Positions 9,207 to 43,654 of a stretch of DNA of 64,000 nucleotides are shown here, in pieces (positions within the stretch are counted from its first letter, which is position 1; every line of letters starts with the position of its first letter). The stretch comes from Promethearchaeota archaeon. Lineage in GTDB: Archaea; Asgardarchaeota; Lokiarchaeia; Sigyniarchaeales; SOKP01. The notes beneath the pieces are model-generated. The model worked only from the letters and a program-made list of their open reading frames with translations, had not been told where the DNA came from and made no database searches. The stretch is taken from positions 1 to 64,000 of the forward strand of contig JAHLWP010000007.1 in assembly GCA_019057865.1 (NCBI GenBank). Direction: 5' to 3'. Position numbers and translations under genes: made by a program.

Positions 9207-10007
9207 TCAAATATTATGAAAATCTCTGAACTTTTTTAAAATTAGATTACATATTGCTTCGACCGGAGAAATATTATCCAACTGCCACTGACTAAATTCT
9301 GGGAAACTCCCGACATCTACGGCATATAGTTGATTAGTTGATTCTTCTCTAACAATATCAATATGACCAAATAGAGCATTTCCTTCTAAATATTTTCTCC
9401 ATTTTTCAATAAAGTCTTTCACATCAAGAGGAGTGCTTATTTTTTCCATATCAACATGTTCATGGGATAAAGGAGGTTTAATTAATGTACAAATCTCATC
9501 ATCAATAAAATATACATTATAATGTTCCCCTTCAATATACTTCTCTAAATATAATATTCTTTTATTATCATTGTCGCTAAAATCCTTAAAAGAATTAATA
9601 AGTTTAACCCCTTTACTTCCAGATCCCATAATTGGTTTTAAAATTAAAGGAAAATCATTATTATTAAGTTCTTTTTTCAATGTTTCTACAGTACTTAAAT
9701 ATATGTGAGGAGGTGAAAGTCCAGCTCTTTTCATTAATAAATGTGAATGTACTCTATTTTTCTGCTTAAATGAAGTTTCTGGATCAGGGATAACCGGTAT
9801 TTTATTTGCTTTTAAGTATTGGCCAGCATATATAAAAAAAATATTTTTTGATTTTAAAACAAAAAAATCGTTTGATAAAAGTGTGTCATTGATACTAAGA
9901 TTGTCTAAAGTATAGACTTTAACATTAAAACCTTTATTATTTACAAAAAATTGTTTCATTTTACCCGTAAACATTGTTTTTCTTTTAGATAAAATTCCTA
10001 TATTCAA
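9207..10007 (-). CDS. ATP-grasp protein (RimK/ITPK1-like)
   Basis: PLILKPIMGSGSKGV, LEKYIEG, AVDVGSFPEF. Confidence 0.75.
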   Translation of the reverse strand: MNIGILSKRKTMFTGKMKQFFVNNKGFNVKVYTLDNLSINDTLLSNDFFVLKSKNIFFIYAGQYLKANKIPVIPDPETSFKQKNRVHSHLLMKRAGLSPPHIYLSTVETLKKELNNNDFPLILKPIMGSGSKGVKLINSFKDFSDNDNKRILYLEKYIEGEHYNVYFIDDEICTLIKPPLSHEHVDMEKISTPLDVKDFIEKWRKYLEGNALFGHIDIVREESTNQLYAVDVGSFPEFSQWQLDNISPVEAICNLILKKFRDFHNI

Positions 10008-10019
10008 TTTAAACCCCTT

Positions 10020-28643: not shown

Positions 28644-31010
28644 TCACAATTTAATAGACCTAACAATTACATCCTTAAATTTCTCTACATCATTAACCAA
28701 TTTATCGGCTTCAGAATCGCTGATTTTGTCATCTTTTCCATACTTATTCAATTGTGTAAGCCAAAACTCAATTCTGTCAAGGATCGCTTTTTCTTTGTCT
28801 CCTAAAAGTTTTCTTAACCTAATAAAAGTATCATGGAGTTTATTTCTAATATTTTGTGCTTTCCATCTTAACATACAATAATCGGAAATTTCAGCTAAAT
28901 TCTGGGTGATTGCCATCAGATCTATTGTTTTTTCACGTTCTTCGCTTTTAATTTTCCTAATTAAATTGATCTCCTCAAATAGGAGCTCTATAACTTTGGC
29001 AAGGAATCCCGTTAGTTGTCCTGCGTGTGCTGTCCAGATTCTAACTTCTAATGATTGATTAGCTTCGGAAACATAAATCCGTGTTATAATACGTCCTCCA
29101 CCGATTTTGGCTTCACTACAATGCCAACTTTCTGCTTCATATTTTCCTTTGGCATCACTTCCCTCATGGGAAGTTACTGTACTTACTTCAAAACGTCTTA
29201 TAGTTCTCACTGCTGATCTAAATGCCAATCGAGAATCTAAGTCTGCGATTAAGAAAGCCCTAGCGTCATTCGGTAAATCTTGAATAGCCAACTGGATATC
29301 CTCGATTGTTGCCAGACAGGAAACGACTAAGGGACATTTTATTTGGATTTCACGTTTTTTTATGTGTATCGTGTTTTTTGCTCCTGAGGCTGTTTTATAA
29401 ATAACTGTTCCTCCGATTGAAGAAATACCGCATTCTTTTGGCTCTAAATAAAAATCGACACCTCTAGAATTTTTGGATTCTATAACAGGTATGCTTATTA
29501 AAGGTTGTTTTATTTTATAGCTACTAGGAACGTCTAAAATCACTTTAACAGAATGAATTGCCATATCAGTTTTATTCCTGACAGCTACTTTAAAGTGTAA
29601 TTGACCCCCGATAAAATCATAATCACGAACTACCTCAATTTTACCTTTATCTGAAGGTTTCGCAGCCTTCGGTTTTGCACGAGATTTTGCTTCTATTGGC
29701 ACACTATATGCTACAAATAATTTTTTATGCATGTCGATGTATCCATCAATATCTCCTTTACCAATTAAAATTGCTAAATTTTCTTCTATACTGGATTCTG
29801 TAACCCCTAATCTGCTTGAAAGTTCTCGTAAAGGCATAGTTCTATAAGCTCTCGCAAATCCTCTTATTTTGGTTTCAAGATATTTACTTGTCATAAATTC
29901 TCTTCGTTGAGTAAAAAGACCCTTCATAGAACCAGTCTTAATTAATTCATGAAGGCTTTTTCTTGCTAATTCTACAGCAATTTTTAATTTTTCAGCAAGT
30001 TTAGAAAGTTCAAATAATCCCTGTTCTTTCGAATAATTTTTAATTTCTTTAAAAATTTGACTTGACGTAATAATTTCATTTCCTCTATCGGCAAAAAACC
30101 CATTTATCTCTTTTGTTCTCATTAAATTAACACAAAAAGACTTTACAAGTTCACTAGGAATATTGAAGATTTTTGCCAGATCTTTAATTGATATTCTGCC
30201 CTTTTTATTGATTTCTTTTATTAAATTATCCATAATATACTGTTGTGTATAATAGTTTGCTTTATCACGTGAAAAAGAGCCTTTTATCTGAAATTGCTTA
30301 ATTAACTTGTATATTACTTTAATTGCTATTTCTGAGCTCATATCTAACATTATTGCTAAATCTGCAACTTTAATAATTCCCTCATTTTGAAATTTTGAAA
30401 GTAAAGTTTCTCTCATTTCAGACGATATGTAATAAAACATTTGACTTTTTTGATCAATAATTCCATAAATCCTTTCTTCATCCAAATATTTATTTATGAA
30501 TTTACTCAATTGTTCAGCTGAAATATTAAAAGAGTTCATTAAAGTTGAGAAATTAGTAGCTGGTCCTCTTTTCAAAAGATCTAGAAAGCAATTTGGGCAA
30601 ATTTCCTTTCCTACTATATGTCGTAATCTTTTATTACATAAAGTTAATCTATTTCCTTTAATAAGATCAAATCTTATAGCTTCTCTTGCGAGTTTCTCTT
30701 TTGATGGGAAGAATAGACCTGGTGTTTTTAAATAAGAATTCCATCCACACTTATTATTGGTACATTGTAAGTAGTACTGCCCAGAAGATAATCTTTCTAA
30801 TCTTAAAAGAGATTTACATTCGGGGCATTCACTATTTTCAACAACAGTACATTTATAATATGTTTCTATTGCTTTTGCTTTTGAATATATAAGGTTATGA
30901 TTTTTACATTCATGGATCTCTGTTGTAGCAATATGATTCATACAAAAACTAGATTTGCATTTCTCGCAAGTAAAATCGATTTTCTGGCTTTCACAGAATA
31001 AACATTTCAT
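28644..31010 (-). CDS. Multidomain protein: Zn fingers + tandem PCI/UFL1/DDRGK-like winged helices + appendage-like beta-sandwich/platform domain
   Basis: AN1-like CxxC..CxxC..FCxxH, Zn ribbons, about five repeats of the type GxIxxxDLAxxLx...GxIxGxxD, then HFKVAVRN...VDFYLEPKECG. Confidence 0.65.
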   Translation of the reverse strand: MKCLFCESQKIDFTCEKCKSSFCMNHIATTEIHECKNHNLIYSKAKAIETYYKCTVVENSECPECKSLLRLERLSSGQYYLQCTNNKCGWNSYLKTPGLFFPSKEKLAREAIRFDLIKGNRLTLCNKRLRHIVGKEICPNCFLDLLKRGPATNFSTLMNSFNISAEQLSKFINKYLDEERIYGIIDQKSQMFYYISSEMRETLLSKFQNEGIIKVADLAIMLDMSSEIAIKVIYKLIKQFQIKGSFSRDKANYYTQQYIMDNLIKEINKKGRISIKDLAKIFNIPSELVKSFCVNLMRTKEINGFFADRGNEIITSSQIFKEIKNYSKEQGLFELSKLAEKLKIAVELARKSLHELIKTGSMKGLFTQRREFMTSKYLETKIRGFARAYRTMPLRELSSRLGVTESSIEENLAILIGKGDIDGYIDMHKKLFVAYSVPIEAKSRAKPKAAKPSDKGKIEVVRDYDFIGGQLHFKVAVRNKTDMAIHSVKVILDVPSSYKIKQPLISIPVIESKNSRGVDFYLEPKECGISSIGGTVIYKTASGAKNTIHIKKREIQIKCPLVVSCLATIEDIQLAIQDLPNDARAFLIADLDSRLAFRSAVRTIRRFEVSTVTSHEGSDAKGKYEAESWHCSEAKIGGGRIITRIYVSEANQSLEVRIWTAHAGQLTGFLAKVIELLFEEINLIRKIKSEEREKTIDLMAITQNLAEISDYCMLRWKAQNIRNKLHDTFIRLRKLLGDKEKAILDRIEFWLTQLNKYGKDDKISDSEADKLVNDVEKFKDVIVRSIKL

Positions 31011-35471: not shown

Positions 35472-36908
35472 ATGTCTTTTGTAAGAAAAAATGATACTGA
35501 TAAAAAAACGTCTTTCGGAGTAATAGTTGGAAATAGAGATGTCTTTCCTGATCATTTAGTAAAGGAAGGTAGAAAAGATATTATAGACGTAATGAACGAA
35601 TTAGAATATAAATTTGTTATTCTAGATGAAGAAGATACTCCTCTAGGAGCGGTTGAGACATATTCAGATGCGAAGAAATGTGCAGAACTTTTTAAAAAGA
35701 ATTCTGATAAAATTTTAGGTATAATTTTATGTCTTTGTAATTTTGGAGATGAGAAAGCCGTAGCCAACACTATAAAATTATCAGAACTTGATGTTCCAAT
35801 CCTAATACAAGCATCATCAGATGATATAAACAAAATGGATAGGTCCTCTAGAAGAGATGCTTTCTGCGGAAAGATTTCAGTAACGAGTGTGTTATATCAA
35901 TATGGAATTCCTTTCACTCTTACTTCAAATCATACATGTGTAATTAAATCTGATGAATTTAAGAAGGATTTAATACGATTTGAGAAAATTTGTAAAGTTG
36001 TTAGGAAAATTAGAAGGGCTAGGTTCGGACAGATCGGTACTCGACCTAATGCATTTGAAACCGTGAGATATAGTGAAAAAATTCTTGCATTTAATGGAAT
36101 TTCTATCGAACTTATCGATTTATCTGAAATTTTAGCAGCAATTCAAAAATTAAAAGATGATGATCCTAAAGTTAAAGATAAAATTGAATTCATTAAAAAT
36201 TATACTCCCACTAAAGAATTCCCTAAGGATGGGTTATTAAAATTAGCTAAATTGGCTGTGATCGTTGAAACTTGGGTTCTTGAACTTGACTTAGATGGAT
36301 TCGCCTTTCAGTGTTGGCCTTCTATAGTTTCTAATTTCGGCATCGTCCCATGCGCGGTCATGAGCATGTTTAGTGAAGGGTTGGTACCTGCTGCTTGTGA
36401 AGTTGATATCTCAGGATTAATTGGCATGTATATTCTTCAAGTAGCTACTAATACCCCTTCTGCGATTGTCGACTGGAATAACAATTACGGAGATGATCCT
36501 AATAAAATGGTATTATTTCACTGTAGTAATTTACCCAAATCGTTCTTTCAAGATACCAAAATGACGGTCCATCCTATTATGGCAGAATACGATGGCGAAG
36601 AAAATACATTTGGCGCGATACAAGGAAAGATTAAGACGAAACCTTGTACAATGCTCAGAATAGAAACCGATGATATTTTTGGAGAAATAAAAGCAATAGT
36701 TGTAGAAGGAAAATTTACTGATGATCCTCTTGATACATATGGAGGATATGGTGTCATTGAGATTCCAAATTTACAAGAATTACTAAAGAAATTATGTCGT
36801 AGTGGATTTGCTCATCATGTAGCCGTTTCCCTAAATGAAGTTGGAGATATTGTTTATGAAGCTCTATTTACTTATCTCGGATGGGATATAGATTTCTTTA
36901 ATAAATAA
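35472..36908 (+). CDS. L-fucose/L-arabinose isomerase family protein (3' part probably element-derived)
   Basis: NFGDE, RRDAFCGKIS, FQCWP, AACEVD, FHCSN, GFAHHV. Confidence 0.88.
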   Translation: MSFVRKNDTDKKTSFGVIVGNRDVFPDHLVKEGRKDIIDVMNELEYKFVILDEEDTPLGAVETYSDAKKCAELFKKNSDKILGIILCLCNFGDEKAVANTIKLSELDVPILIQASSDDINKMDRSSRRDAFCGKISVTSVLYQYGIPFTLTSNHTCVIKSDEFKKDLIRFEKICKVVRKIRRARFGQIGTRPNAFETVRYSEKILAFNGISIELIDLSEILAAIQKLKDDDPKVKDKIEFIKNYTPTKEFPKDGLLKLAKLAVIVETWVLELDLDGFAFQCWPSIVSNFGIVPCAVMSMFSEGLVPAACEVDISGLIGMYILQVATNTPSAIVDWNNNYGDDPNKMVLFHCSNLPKSFFQDTKMTVHPIMAEYDGEENTFGAIQGKIKTKPCTMLRIETDDIFGEIKAIVVEGKFTDDPLDTYGGYGVIEIPNLQELLKKLCRSGFAHHVAVSLNEVGDIVYEALFTYLGWDIDFFNK

Positions 36909-36957: not shown

Positions 36958-39582
36958 TTAATCAGGATATATATTTTCTTTTAAATAATATCTAAAATAC
37001 CAATACCAAAATTCAGGCTTTTTACAGTTTGAATTTTTTTGCCTAAATAAATCCATATCTCTTAAAAGTAGCTTATAATGATAATTATAAAAATTCGGAT
37101 AAAAATTTTTATAGAACTCTTTATCTGATAAGATTTTACGTGCTTTCCATCTTTTAATCCACTCTTCGATTAATTTTTCAGGAAACTTATTCCATATCTT
37201 AATCTCTTGGCCATCAATCAATATAGTCTCCTTTTTAAATTCCGATTTAATTATATGATCATAATTTTTACGAATATTGTTAATATTTAGTATTCTATAA
37301 AGATGTTTCATTCGAGCATTCAACAACACTTTATTCTTGTTAAATTCCTCTTTATATGCATGAATCTTCCAATGAGATTTTGAAGCAAGAAGTATTATTT
37401 TAAATGTGAAATCCGAAGAATTGTAATCAAAGATTAAATAATATTTCTGATCTTCATCCAGATGATGGCGTGTTATATAAAGCACATATCGCCCCTTTAT
37501 AATTTGACCATCCTTAGTGACAAAAGGATGTGCATCCTCTATAAAATCTTTATCATAAACATCCAATCCTAAACTTAGATCTAATAGTTCTTTGCGCTGA
37601 ATACCTCTTAAATCAATAAAGTGTTTTTCATACACCCTCCAATGTGGATTATTGATATGTGTCTTAATCCTATATATAGCATTATGACATGCTCCAGGAG
37701 CTTTAAAGAATCCTTTTCTAATTTCTTTAATTAATCTTGTACCCTCAGTTTTAGCTAAAATATATCCATTTCTAAACTTGCCAGTAAGAAAATCTCGAGA
37801 ATTTGTTTTAGAAATCAATCTACTTAAATCTGTATAATCATAAACAAAATCACTATTCTTATTACTTCTTCCTCTTTCTATCTTAGTTAACGCTAATAAT
37901 GAATGGATTACAATATCAAACAATTCTCTATTATCAGTATTGACTATTCGCCTTGAATATTTCGACTCACATAATTCTTTTATCATATTCCTATTTTTCA
38001 TTTCCTTAAAAATAAGATTACGACATTCCGCTTTAAGATCGCTAATATTCACGCCATCTTTAAAATCAAATCTCTCCTTATTAATCAAATGTATACTAGT
38101 AAGCAAATTGAAATATTTTGCATAATGTTCAGGACCTCCTTCACCCCTTTCCCCTCTTCTATATTCTAAATCAAAAATATATGCACGGCTTTTTCCCAAT
38201 ATTTGTGAGAGCCAAGATTTTCCTCCTCCTCCTTTAATATACTTGTTAAAAACAGAGACTAAAATATTCAGAAAATCTTTATTGTACTTCTTTTCGTGGT
38301 AATCAGTTAAGACTCCCGAAAAAGAATTATAAATCTCAGGATGATTTGAGAAAATTTCTATGTGCTCACATATTTTTTTAAAAGTTGTTGGACGAACATT
38401 CATATCAAGAGGTTTATTCCTTGGTAATTCAAGTTGATACGACCATCTTTTTGCTGTATCTAAACTGATACCCAGAATCTTAGAAATATCAGTTGCGACA
38501 ATACGGTTTTTAAAACGGCGTAGACTTGTTCCTCCTGTGATATTAAGGTTAAGTTTATTTGTTGTGGTTTTCTCAAACTCCACAAGTTCAATCTCACACT
38601 CATAAATTAAATTTATTAAGCTCTTTATCAACTTAGTATCAAGATTATCATTTTTATTATAATTATATATCTTTTTTTTATTGCCGTTATATTTGTCTTT
38701 ATACAAAACTCTTATATCTTCACTTCTTTTTTCTTGTCTTTTAATATCAGATTTAGTAAATTTCATCGTTAATCCCTCAGTATAAAATTCATGATAAGAA
38801 GAAAACCGATCAAATGCAGTTATTTTAGCCTTCTTAATTTCTTTGCTTTCAGGATTCAATCCAAGAAGGCAACGGCATGTTCCAACATTTAGGATTTGAT
38901 CATAATTACTCTTGATTTCTTTTAAAGTCATTTCATACTTATTTTCTGGCGAATTTATGATCTCATTATGTTTTAATATATAGTTTTGCCAATCTCTCAA
39001 ATAATTCTGGAGGCTTTTAGATAGTGCTCGAAGATTTTGATGATCAGTGAGGACTTCAGAATGAGTTCTTAAATGCTTAAGTATCCTCGTATACTGGATT
39101 GTAATTTCATCCATTCCATTTTTAATTACCTTATTCACGAGATTTGGTTTGGAAGTTCCTCCTTTTTTAATTGCTTTAATCTGTTTCTTGGTCAATTGTT
39201 TAAGATACGTATTTGAAATCACATCCATATAACGTGAAACTATGGGCGCTCCCCTTCCCACTGTGATGCAATATACCCATCCTTCTATAAACAAGCTAAT
39301 TTCATCGGGGAATTTTGATTTTACTCCTTCGAGTAATGCACTTGGTGGGAGTCCTGCTTTATCAAACAAGCAAGCTAAGGCAGCATCAACAAAATCACCA
39401 ATCCTTTCATCAACATAGACTAAAGGAATGTGATGTATCTTACATTTTGGATATTTGTCAAAACCTAAGAACCTAAATTTAAGTGGCTTAACTCGTGTCA
39501 TATGTTCGCATCCAAAATTTGGGCAAATTGCTACTCGATCCTCTCCCACGGTTTTCCGTGATACGTTTGTGTATGCCTTCAT
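36958..39582 (-). CDS. 874-aa protein: Zn-binding N-terminal domain, HTH-like middle, HNH-like C-terminal motif
   Basis: CPNFGC...CKIHH; ATDISKILGISLDTAKRW and KSWLSQILGKSRAYI HTH-like segments; RHHLDED...IILLASKSHWKIH. Confidence 0.6.
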   Translation of the reverse strand: MKAYTNVSRKTVGEDRVAICPNFGCEHMTRVKPLKFRFLGFDKYPKCKIHHIPLVYVDERIGDFVDAALACLFDKAGLPPSALLEGVKSKFPDEISLFIEGWVYCITVGRGAPIVSRYMDVISNTYLKQLTKKQIKAIKKGGTSKPNLVNKVIKNGMDEITIQYTRILKHLRTHSEVLTDHQNLRALSKSLQNYLRDWQNYILKHNEIINSPENKYEMTLKEIKSNYDQILNVGTCRCLLGLNPESKEIKKAKITAFDRFSSYHEFYTEGLTMKFTKSDIKRQEKRSEDIRVLYKDKYNGNKKKIYNYNKNDNLDTKLIKSLINLIYECEIELVEFEKTTTNKLNLNITGGTSLRRFKNRIVATDISKILGISLDTAKRWSYQLELPRNKPLDMNVRPTTFKKICEHIEIFSNHPEIYNSFSGVLTDYHEKKYNKDFLNILVSVFNKYIKGGGGKSWLSQILGKSRAYIFDLEYRRGERGEGGPEHYAKYFNLLTSIHLINKERFDFKDGVNISDLKAECRNLIFKEMKNRNMIKELCESKYSRRIVNTDNRELFDIVIHSLLALTKIERGRSNKNSDFVYDYTDLSRLISKTNSRDFLTGKFRNGYILAKTEGTRLIKEIRKGFFKAPGACHNAIYRIKTHINNPHWRVYEKHFIDLRGIQRKELLDLSLGLDVYDKDFIEDAHPFVTKDGQIIKGRYVLYITRHHLDEDQKYYLIFDYNSSDFTFKIILLASKSHWKIHAYKEEFNKNKVLLNARMKHLYRILNINNIRKNYDHIIKSEFKKETILIDGQEIKIWNKFPEKLIEEWIKRWKARKILSDKEFYKNFYPNFYNYHYKLLLRDMDLFRQKNSNCKKPEFWYWYFRYYLKENIYPD

Positions 39583-39586
39583 GAAG

Positions 39587-40192
39587 TTAATCTATCCTCA
39601 AGTTGTTTTTTGATATTTTAATCTTCACTCTTGGTGTGTTTTCTAATAATCTCTCTAATTCCCTTTCTAAACTACTGTAGTTTATTTCAAGTTCCTTATA
39701 AAATTCACTGAATTGTGCGTTCAAGCACTTCTTCACTAAAAATATGTTTTGTGCTAATTTAACTATAAATTTGAGAAATTTTGAATGACGATGAAGGCTT
39801 TCTTCTGAAAAATAATGAAGTAACATGGATAGTTTCTCAGCTATTTCTGAGAGTCTATTCAAGGGAGTTCTACAATTGTTATAAAAGAGAGATTGAATTC
39901 CTTGTTCAAGTGATTGTCCGTTTTTCTTGATTTTACTTAACAAAGTCATGAATTCACGAGTTAATGATTCAATTTCTTGTTTTTGGGTATAAAATGTAGT
40001 GTTTATATCTTTTTCGGCAAAACTTAGAGTGGTTCCAAATCGGTATCTTATTACTTCATTCTTGTAATTGAAAAATGTTCGGAGTTGTCGTGAAAGTTCT
40101 TTTATTTTTCTTACTCCCTCAATCTCATACCAATTATTAAAAATATCATCATATTCTAATTCAATATAATATTCTTCATTATTATCCGTCAT
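39587..40192 (-). CDS. Hypothetical alpha-helical protein, likely co-transcribed with the 874-aa gene
   Basis: 201-aa ORF whose stop lies 4 nt before the next ATG. Confidence 0.7.
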   Translation of the reverse strand: MTDNNEEYYIELEYDDIFNNWYEIEGVRKIKELSRQLRTFFNYKNEVIRYRFGTTLSFAEKDINTTFYTQKQEIESLTREFMTLLSKIKKNGQSLEQGIQSLFYNNCRTPLNRLSEIAEKLSMLLHYFSEESLHRHSKFLKFIVKLAQNIFLVKKCLNAQFSEFYKELEINYSSLERELERLLENTPRVKIKISKNNLRID

Positions 40193-40323
40193 AATTTACT
40201 ATTTTAAACCTTTTACTAACTAATTAAAACATTTATATTTAAACAAAAAATGTTATTTCTAATAATTACAATTTAGAAAAAATACGATAAAATGTCTTAT
40301 ATCCCGCATAAAATATCATTTTC

Positions 40324-40908
40324 TCTAGTTTTGGGATAGTTCCATGTGCATTTCTAAGCATGTTTAGTGAAGGACTTGTTCCAGCGGCATGTGAAGTAGA
40401 TATTGCAGGATTAATTGGTATGTATATTTTACAGATTGCCACAAATACACCATCAGCAATATTGGATTGGAATAATAATTATGGGGATGATCCTAATAAA
40501 ATGGTATTGTTTCATTGCAGTAATCTCCCTAAATCATTCTTTAAAGATACTAAAATTACAATCCACCCAATTATTTCAGACCTCAAGGGTGGTGAAGTCA
40601 GCTATGGTGCTATACAAGGAAGAATAAAATCTGAACTTGTTACACTTTTAAGAATTGAAACTGATGATTTTATGGGTGAAATGAAGGCTATTATTGCAGA
40701 GGGGGAATACACCGATGATGCACTTGATACATTCGGAGGTTATGGTGTGGTTAAAATCCCTAATTTGCAATATTTATTAAAGAAATTGTGTTATGGGGGA
40801 TTTGCCCATCATGTTGCTGCTACACTGAATGAAGTAGGAATAATTGTTTATGAGGCTCTGTCTAGCTATCTTGGCTGGAATGTAGAATTTCACAATAAAG
40901 ATCAATAA
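40324..40908 (+). pseudogene. Orphaned 3' fragment of the fucose/arabinose isomerase gene
   Basis: Reads SSFGIVPCAFLSMFSEGLVPAACEVD...GFAHHV...LGWNVEFHNK. Homology stops abruptly about 40318-40324, with an in-frame TAA at 40309. Confidence 0.85.
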
Positions 40909-42162: not shown

Positions 42163-42840
42163 TTATTCAAGGCTTGTTCTTTCCAATAAATCCTCAAATT
42201 CTTTATCTGAAAGGAAACCTTTTTGCATCATAAGATCTTTAATTTCATCCATGAGTTGAGGAGCTCCTTTAGCTTCGGAGATTGTTTCTTCAAGTGCTTT
42301 TATCTTATCATTAAGCGCATCAACTTCTTTTACTTTTGATTCTTTTTCATCCTTAAGGCTTTCAACCTCTACATATTTATCTGAAATTGATTTTTGTAAA
42401 TCCTTTTTAAGACTTTCAATCTCATTATTTTTTTGTTCTAGTTCTGCTTTAAGATCATTTTTTTCATTTTCTAAAGCCTCTATTCTTTCAGATGATTTCT
42501 CTAATTCTATAATTTTTGAATTTGCTACAGATAATTTTTCCTCCAATTCAGTTATCGAAGATTTGAATTTATTGGTTTCGGCATCTACATAAAGTTTTTC
42601 TTCCTTGATTCTCTCAAAGTTTTTTTTCATTTCATCTAATTCGTCAATTTTTTTCTCTGATTCTAATAATTTTCCTTTAGTGGTTCTTAAATCTTCTGTT
42701 GTTTTTTCTAGGTCTTTTCTTTTCTGAGTTAATTGTCTTTCTAAATCATTAATTTTGGATCTAAGGTCTAATAAAAATCTTCCCTCAACTTTTTGTTTTG
42801 CCTCAGGCTTCTCTTTCGCCTTGGCCCAATCAAAAGAAAT
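42163..42840 (-). CDS. Coiled-coil protein (DWAKA N-terminus, KGFxxDKE C-terminus)
   Basis: Open frame extends 70 codons above the track ATG to ISFDWAKAKEKP...VEGRFLLDLR; GAGGTGA lies 7 nt before ATT 42840. Confidence 0.75.
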   Translation of the reverse strand: MSFDWAKAKEKPEAKQKVEGRFLLDLRSKINDLERQLTQKRKDLEKTTEDLRTTKGKLLESEKKIDELDEMKKNFERIKEEKLYVDAETNKFKSSITELEEKLSVANSKIIELEKSSERIEALENEKNDLKAELEQKNNEIESLKKDLQKSISDKYVEVESLKDEKESKVKEVDALNDKIKALEETISEAKGAPQLMDEIKDLMMQKGFLSDKEFEDLLERTSLE

Positions 42841-42988: not shown

Positions 42989-43654
42989 TTAATCTTCTAA
43001 TTCTTTTCTTAATTGTTCAAGCTCCTTATCAGTTATAAATCCTTTATGTTCCATTACTTCTCTAATTTTTATCATTATTTTTGGAGATGTTTTAGCCTCT
43101 AAAAACTGACTTTCAAGAACACTGATTCTATTAATTAGCTCATTTGTTTTAATATTTTTCGCTTCTAAGTTACTTTTAAGGCTTTCTAATTCTATATCTT
43201 TTTGTTTTAAATCATTTTTGAGATTTTGAACTTCCTTTTCTTTAAAATTGATTTTTTGTTCCATTTCGGATGCTTTCTCAGAGGTGAAATTTAATTGGTT
43301 CTCTAATGTAGTGATTTTCGCTACAGCTTCAGTTAAATTTTTTTCTAACTCTGATTTCGTTGATTTTAGTTTTGTTACTTCAATATCAGTATGAAGTTTA
43401 TCTTCCTGTACTTTATCTAAAGTCTTTTTCGCTGAAGATCTTTTCTCTGTTAACTCAAGTAAACTTTTTTCACGACCAGCTAATTTTTTTTTTATATTTT
43501 TTAGTTCATTATTTGCCTGTTCTAACTCCTTTTTACTTTGGATTAATTTTTGTTCAAGATCACTAATTTTAGTTCGAAGGTCTAAAAGATACCTTCCCTC
43601 CACAGGTAATTTCTTATCAGGTCTCTCCTCAGCTTTTGCCCAATCTATAATAAT
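42989..43654 (-). CDS. Coiled-coil protein, tandem paralogue
   Basis: IIIDWAKAEERP...VEGRYLLDLR; GAGGTGA lies 7 nt before ATT 43654; C-terminus MEHKGFITDKE. Confidence 0.75.
   Translation of the reverse strand: MIIDWAKAEERPDKKLPVEGRYLLDLRTKISDLEQKLIQSKKELEQANNELKNIKKKLAGREKSLLELTEKRSSAKKTLDKVQEDKLHTDIEVTKLKSTKSELEKNLTEAVAKITTLENQLNFTSEKASEMEQKINFKEKEVQNLKNDLKQKDIELESLKSNLEAKNIKTNELINRISVLESQFLEAKTSPKIMIKIREVMEHKGFITDKELEQLRKELED

Follow-up and report, generated by a model that had tools for sequence, protein, structure and literature searches.

The window analysed here is the whole 64-kb stretch of the Promethearchaeota archaeon contig JAHLWP010000007.1 (positions 1 to 64,000; GC content ~29%), from an Asgard archaeon of the Loki type. 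Within it, two adjacent genes on the minus strand encode a large modular protein of 874 aa and a partner protein of 201 aa. The genome that carries the window is called G000 below, and all other G-numbers denote genomes of relatives. Both open reading frames (ORFs) are present where the initial annotation had placed them, separated by 4 nt; in three sister copies in G000 the partner and large ORFs overlap by 4 nt. The ratio of nonsynonymous to synonymous substitution rates (dN/dS) was 0.15–0.38 for the partner and for the N-terminal domain (N-domain), the middle and the C-terminal part of the large protein (three pairwise comparisons, against the copies in G102 and G121). This indicates that both genes are under purifying selection and are not chance ORFs. 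Searches of Pfam, NCBIfam, PADLOC and PHROGs returned nothing significant for either protein. The gene pair is flanked on one side by a full fucose-isomerase-like gene and on the other by a fragment of that gene (Table 1), which is 76% identical to residues 299–478 of the full gene over 180 aa. At the DNA level, the homology between the full gene and the fragment begins at about 36326 and 40320, respectively. We refer to the two genes, together with the isomerase gene end attached to them, as the cassette.

An empty site was found in the closest relative, G012, where the isomerase gene directly adjoins a DNA methylase gene and synteny is conserved on both sides. In the window it is the fragment that adjoins the methylase gene, and the distal part of the fragment and the spacer following it are 85–92% identical to G012. 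This indicates that the fragment is the native end of the isomerase gene. The methylase was considered as a part of the cassette and rejected, as it is syntenic in genomes that do not carry the cassette. Five further genomes of the family, four belonging to another genus, carry the same C-terminal module of the large protein (64–88% identity), and in 6/6 genomes it lies directly behind the isomerase gene in convergent orientation. The recurrence of the same insertion site across genomes, with empty sites in relatives, is a hallmark of homing endonuclease genes; besides G012, 41 alleles from two genera are free of the cassette. The stranded fragment was also present in G076 and G138, and G102 and G121 retain just about its last 12 codons. 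An attached replacement end with the native end lying beyond the element, as seen in G000, G076 and G138, is in turn the arrangement left by the WHO elements and mORFs discussed below. We found no convincing repeats, direct or inverted, at the ends of the cassette, and no tRNA gene, a potential integration target, in the 64-kb window.

The two parts of the isomerase gene have different histories. The tree of the 5′ part follows the hosts, with support of 100 for G000 with G012, 94 for G076 with G005 and 97 for the other genus. The cassette-attached 3′ ends from the two genera group together in a single clade (98/95 in the ultrafast bootstrap and the SH-like approximate likelihood ratio test, UFboot/SH-aLRT), and the stranded end of G076 is sister to G005 (99/97), as is the 5′ part of G076. 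An approximately unbiased (AU) test, applied to a group that was chosen after a first tree had been seen, rejected a placement of the attached end of G076 with its host kin (p = 2e-7). Along the gene, the identity of G076 to G005 falls from 82–100% to 63–83% at codons ~270–283, and the stranded end of G076 is 88–98% identical to G005 beyond the first interval compared. Flanking sequence was thus co-converted with the element, as it is by homing endonuclease genes. Alleles of the cassette type also occur where there is no cassette. G012 matches the attached tract of the window over ~440 nt with one mismatch, and upstream the two are 72–93% identical; its allele is a mosaic in which this window-like tract of ~440 nt is followed by native-like sequence (L037:7006-7668). 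It is either a conversion tract that arrived without the cassette or the product of cassette loss by recombination between the two copies. G120 (L065, G120:C16:1745-3160) likewise carries the cassette-type GTTTCT allele and no cassette.

Comparison of 49 isomerase alleles from two genera, the second genus serving as confirmation, localised the difference between cassette-type and other alleles. Gene nt 856–860 (codons 286–287) were the sole block of fixed differences in the first 23 alleles, and the second genus agreed. At these positions 8/8 cassette-type alleles (six attached ends plus those of G012 and G120) read GTTTC or GTTTT (Val-Ser or Val-Leu), and the other 41 alleles read CARGA (Gln-Asp) in 40 cases and GAAGA in one; across codons 286–287, 40 of the 41 read CARGAY. 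The stranded fragments start at nt ~855 (G000), ~860 (G076) and ~890 (G138), at or just past the recoded codons. As with homing endonuclease genes, alleles that carry the element differ from the others at the putative target. From these alignments we read codons 286–287 as the putative site of recognition and cutting, recoded to resistance in the cassette's own copy.

The large protein is built of parts that vary independently between cassettes. The initial annotation had proposed a constant module joined to an exchangeable DNA-recognition or nuclease module, and collecting homologues, the check it had suggested, bore this out. An exhaustive phmmer search with residues 1–285 against 1.84 billion representatives yielded just 100 clusters, in all of which, partial entries excepted, the N-domain sits N-terminally; these clusters share aa 1–285 and differ in their C-termini. 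A word-based search with the large protein gave 196 homologues, 10 of them matching over the full length. For most of the others the match was limited to the first ~32% of the query (54–85% identity), with total lengths of 562–1154 aa. The named homologues came from metagenome-assembled genomes (MAGs) of Promethearchaeota or Lokiarchaeota. The annotation had set full-length conservation in stable, single-copy homologues against its proposal; we found instead mostly N-terminal matches, patchily distributed and multi-copy.

Among 55 family members, the tails matched LAGLIDADG_3 (5 members), HNH_3 (4), GIY-YIG (4), a treble-clef zinc finger (2) and HTH_23 (2), and in single members winged-helix families, RNase_T, an intein splicing domain and BRCT. 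At least one sister tail had Pfam matches to winged-helix families only. Between G102 and G121, identity is 96–100% over a stretch that begins upstream of the partner gene and reaches about aa 380 of the large protein, and 62–86% beyond it; G000 and G102 are 81–92% identical before about aa 380 and 93–99% identical over aa 383–710. These switches of identity near aa 380 indicate that the cassettes recombine and swap tails. The C-terminal module apparently also occurs inside a giant protein: a 5541-aa open frame of another genome (G057:C9:42502-47214, L046) contains a region with 36% identity to the module over its whole length.

In the window protein, the lysine/asparagine-rich low-complexity linker noted in the initial annotation corresponds to a K/N-rich stretch at about aa 293–316. 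In the C-terminal half, helical regions at aa 307–389 and 436–534 have weak matches of the helix-turn-helix (HTH) type. The structural model of this half (574 residues) has a mean predicted local distance difference test (pLDDT) score of 82 and was built on a shallow alignment of 31 rows; Foldseek with the whole model gave no match. The segments in which the annotation had seen an HNH-type His pattern, RHHLDED (aa 705–711) and SKSHWKIH (aa 734–741), are present. In 14 diverged homologues of the C-terminal domain, R705, H707, H737, R757 and H760 are invariant, and N720 and H741 are not conserved. In the model, R705, H707 and H737 lie in a strand-strands-helix arrangement that aligns to the HNH domains of McrA, Cap5 and four types of Cas9. 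With a His ending its first strand, the local fold predicted for aa 656–767 resembles that of HNH/His-Me finger nucleases (McrA, CBASS Cap5, Cas9 HNH), but profile-level similarity is absent, and the canonical Asn and the second metal-binding His of these enzymes are not conserved in the window protein. We rate a nuclease fold of aa 656–767 as likely. No HNH family was found at E ≤ 0.5 in any of 31 homologues, all rows were at chance level when the C-terminal half and the HNH-like domain were compared as profiles with PDB sequences, and the 874-aa protein has no LAGLIDADG, Hint or GIY-YIG signal.

The cassette is present or absent at a specific site, transfers a 3′ gene end along with itself, is recoded at its junction and exchanges modules with other cassettes. 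We consider it probable that the 201-aa gene, the 874-aa gene and the last ~600 bases of the isomerase gene are one homing-type selfish cassette of ~4 kb. The C-terminal half, with its two or three HTH-like domains and its HNH-like domain, would recognise the native isomerase allele near codons 285–290 (ATH CAR GAY AAY TTY GG) and cut it. The break would then be repaired by copying from a cassette-bearing allele. The recipient would thereby acquire a foreign 3′ end, immune because its site is recoded (GTTTC), with the two cassette genes behind it, and its former 3′ end would persist as a dead fragment or be trimmed away. The cutting itself and the route of repair are the steps that we infer.

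Several points weigh against this proposal. No nuclease family is detected by sequence in the tail of the window protein, and alignment of its HNH-like domain to the HNH_3 tails of sister cassettes with hhalign gave a probability of 0.1, that is, no relation. The most conserved part of the protein, the N-domain, is without an assigned role, and the chemistry of cutting or joining could lie elsewhere. The occurrence of the resistant allele without the cassette in G012 and G120 fits loss or short-tract conversion and proves neither. In addition, the compared genomes are kin, so that the counts given above overstate independence and do not stand for separate events. The first of these points, together with the sister tail that matches winged-helix families only, would suit a tail that in the window variant only binds DNA, the cut being made by a complex of the N-domain and the partner or by a recruited host nuclease. 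We find this improbable, as R705, H707 and H737 are invariant in an arrangement that aligns to HNH domains and as the same target still hosts forms that lack the N-domain.

Table 1. Features of the isomerase locus and of the cassette in the window.
Feature	Position	Strand	Basis
Large modular protein, 874 aa	36958-39582	minus	ORF, homologue search, dN/dS
Partner protein, 201 aa	39587-40192	minus	Directly upstream of the N-domain gene in all copies checked
Constant N-domain, aa 1-285: CCCH zinc ribbon and all-alpha domain	38728-39582	minus	AlphaFold2 model, family search
K/N-rich low-complexity linker, aa 286-312	38647-38727	minus	Sequence
First HTH-like region, aa 314-389	38416-38643	minus	Moves with the constant module in the G102/G121 comparison
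Second HTH-like helical region, aa 436-534	37981-38277	minus	Weak HTH-type matches
HNH-like (putative beta-beta-alpha-metal) domain, aa 656-767	37282-37617	minus	R705, H707, H737, R757, H760
Right cassette end: conserved stretch before the partner gene, probably its promoter	40193-40304	minus	Aligns to G102 and G121; similarity ends at about 40290-40304
Fucose-isomerase-like target gene, 478 aa, chimera of native 5′ part and cassette-borne 3′ part	35472-36908	plus	Pfam Fucose_iso_C; groupings of 5′ and 3′ parts
Replacement 3′ end ('A' tract, codons ~280-478)	36311-36908	plus	76% protein identity to stranded copy; near-identity to G012; clade support 98/95
Stranded native 3′ end ('B' fragment, codons ~285-478 plus two)	40318-40908	plus	Adjoins the methylase gene as the intact gene does in G012
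Recoded core GTTTC, codons 286-287 (Val-Ser)	36327-36331	plus	Allele comparison

The AlphaFold2 (AF2) model of the N-domain (pLDDT 89.6, predicted template modelling score (pTM) 0.87) consists of a zinc ribbon (aa 16–55) and an all-alpha domain; compared with fold libraries it gave no match above chance and hence no recognised fold. The zinc motif proposed from the sequence is strongly conserved: CPNFGC occupies aa 20–25 and CKIHH aa 47–51, and C20, C25, C47 and H50 are invariant in the 55 family members, as are D74, P79, K224, L231 and Y263. In the segment that had looked conserved to the initial annotation, GWVYCITVGRGAP (aa 101–113), residues W102, G109, R110 and G111 are nearly invariant in the same members. 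The partner gene lies directly upstream of the N-domain gene in 4/4 copies in G000, and a partner match lies directly upstream of the N-domain match in 27/27 of those listed in five other genomes (31/31 overall). The conserved stretch upstream of the partner gene contains a 7-nt inverted repeat (AACATTT...AAATGTT, 40228-40254), also present in G102 and G121, which could be an operator.

G076 carries a 624-aa form with a different 52-residue start, without the N-domain and with no partner nearby, and this form is located at the same isomerase site, with attached and stranded gene ends. In the tail tree, forms that lack the N-domain are spread over at least two clades, and some of them may be split or truncated gene calls. 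Because forms that lack them occupy the same site, the N-domain and the partner are probably unneeded for target choice; the tail seems to be enough, with the N-domain and partner in what looks like an accessory role. We regard them as an accessory module that is shared between cassettes and becomes joined, by recombination, to different tails for cutting or binding DNA. Our guess is that the two proteins act as a complex, either controlling the nuclease or assisting it. A more speculative possibility, which we hold only tentatively, is that they are a new kind of homing accessory machine, a two-protein platform that accepts any site-specific nuclease or DNA-binding tail and performs a generic step after recognition, such as holding the ends, steering repair to copying, or even joining DNA. 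Such a platform would explain why the module is shared by three unrelated nuclease superfamilies and by at least one winged-helix-only tail.

Two other explanations were considered. The cassette might be an integrative element with a new recombinase, in which the N-domain and the partner integrate a circular cassette and the variable tail only picks the site. The N-domain and partner are the invariant and most conserved parts, with Y263, K224 and D74 invariant, and an attached replacement end with a displaced native end also results from integrases acting at attachment sites within genes. No recombinase domain was matched in Pfam or NCBIfam or appeared among the fold matches of either model, although absence from these lists does not exclude one. 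We consider this explanation unlikely. A polymorphic toxin or defence system would also combine a constant N-terminus, variable nuclease C-termini and a small linked gene; the N-terminus would serve for delivery or sensing, the variable nuclease would be the toxin and the small protein would confer immunity. Here, however, the small gene is upstream and co-varies with the constant domain rather than with the tail, and the best PADLOC match was at chance level (E = 0.02). A toxin would explain neither the tracking of insertion site by module type nor the co-transfer of gene ends, and we consider it very unlikely.

The N-domain was found in 31 of the 400 genomes of the phylum, patchily and in 1 to at least 9 copies per genome. 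It occurs in 27/134 genomes of the same family (20/42 in one genus and 4/53 in the window's own genus), in 2/14 of a second family, in 1/3 of a third and in none of the rest; the MAGs used carry 3–9% contamination. The N-domain of the window is 86–87% identical to the copies of the other genus, compared to 42–46% for the three sister copies in G000. An ordinary, vertically inherited pair of host regulator or repair genes beside a locally duplicated gene would account for the purifying selection on all parts, but is already contradicted by this patchy, multi-copy distribution, by a closest relative of the window copy in another genus at 88% identity where flanking host genes reach only 35–65%, and by the empty site in G012, and we give it next to no credence.

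We return to the homing-type cassette and its other copies. The second copy in G000 (contig C60; L005:5300-5560, 9569-9761) replaces the 5′ end of an alcohol-dehydrogenase gene. The displaced first ~64 codons lie upstream of the partner gene, and a short frame-breaking insert separates the attached copy from the remainder of the gene. The third copy, on contig C58, showed no duplication of a flanking gene within 3.5 kb. A copy on contig C23 (L007:4720-5613, 9269-10015) lies between two hexapeptide-transferase paralogues that are 34% identical, possibly the result of an end replacement that is old or has diverged strongly. Four cassette copies are located within about 65 kb on one G113 contig (C78:122000-189000). 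A distant N-domain (29% identity) begins ~1,920-aa proteins in another family of the same order (P0192, 1919 aa; G037:C436:5005-5775).

Two known systems replace gene ends in a comparable manner. WHO elements of the yeasts Torulaspora and Lachancea home into a nuclear housekeeping gene, FBA1, where a resistant 3′ end replaces the old one (Coughlan et al. 2020, PMC7282813). A WHO unit consists of an endonuclease gene and a gene end that confers resistance, the old 3′ end is displaced downstream as a fragment, and 5′ and 3′ trees disagree (PMC7282813). The Asgard cassette likewise replaces a 3′ end, strands the old one and has discordant 5′ and 3′ trees. WHO proteins, however, are intein-like LAGLIDADG proteins with zinc fingers, whereas the Asgard cassette is a two-gene unit with a constant 285-aa domain and a partner, many nuclease tails and many targets on archaeal chromosomes, and one of its copies in G000 replaces a 5′ end. 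The mobile endonuclease ORFs (mORFs) of fungal mitochondria create gene hybrids in Allomyces macrogynus atp6 and in Glomus atp6, atp9, cox2 and nad3 (PMC3630166). A foreign C-terminal part and an endonuclease ORF are followed there by the native C-terminal part, and the native part groups with kin while the inserted part groups elsewhere (PMC3630166). The order of attached foreign and stranded native ends and the split between trees are the same in the Asgard cassette. Each mORF, by contrast, is one ORF of the LAGLIDADG or GIY-YIG type in an organelle genome, is often in frame with its host gene, and has no shared accessory domain or partner. We saw no sequence relation of the Asgard cassette to the WHO/HO or mORF endonucleases; it works like these elements but is not a member of either group by descent.

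Free-standing homing endonucleases of phages (T4 seg and mob, and modular enzymes of the I-TevI type) are encoded by stand-alone genes beside their targets, co-convert flanking sequence and join nuclease and DNA-binding domains by linkers (PMC2790892). The Asgard cassette resembles them in having a putative nuclease gene next to the target, co-conversion and linker-joined domains. The phage enzymes are not known to have a constant non-catalytic N-domain across three nuclease superfamilies, an obligate partner gene or a stranded gene end. Aloposons (Wu et al. 2022, PMC8813620) were also considered and rejected, as they encode ~5,000-aa proteins and the terms 'partial duplication' and 'target site' do not occur in that paper. 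Literature searches returned no description of this cassette family or of gene-end-replacing homing in archaea, and the Asgard mobile-element literature checked describes other things.

Some further features lie around the locus or concern the isomerase gene. Beside the methylase gene, the window encodes two coiled-coil paralogues (42163-42630 and 42989-43603, minus strand) that are 38–40% identical to each other's counterparts and syntenic in both genera. Fragments of the isomerase 5′ end (48–66% identity) occur in G012 (L037:3662-3943) and G076 (L063:5297-5440), and also in G010 (L035) and G020 (L027). Those of G012 and G076 are located upstream of the intact gene and separated from it by unrelated ORFs (FGE-sulfatase-like in G012, GNAT in G076), and those of G010 and G020 are on other contigs or alone; the fragments could reflect a second rearrangement or element at the other end of the gene. 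At 28644-31010 (minus strand) the window encodes a 788-aa eukaryote-signature protein with PCI, UFM1-ligase-like, DDRGK and VPS28-like regions.

Both a predicted target site and the corresponding allele read as resistant have been identified here, which opens the mechanism to a simple cleavage assay. The joining of one domain and its partner to LAGLIDADG, HNH, GIY-YIG or HTH tails is unusual among homing endonucleases, and the family is a natural set of long-site DNA-targeting modules, the target of each of which is known because it is the neighbouring gene. Asgard archaea are the closest prokaryotic relatives of eukaryotes. Through the cassette, housekeeping genes become chimeric and gene segments pass from one Asgard genus to another, which matters for gene trees and for the inference of gene flow.

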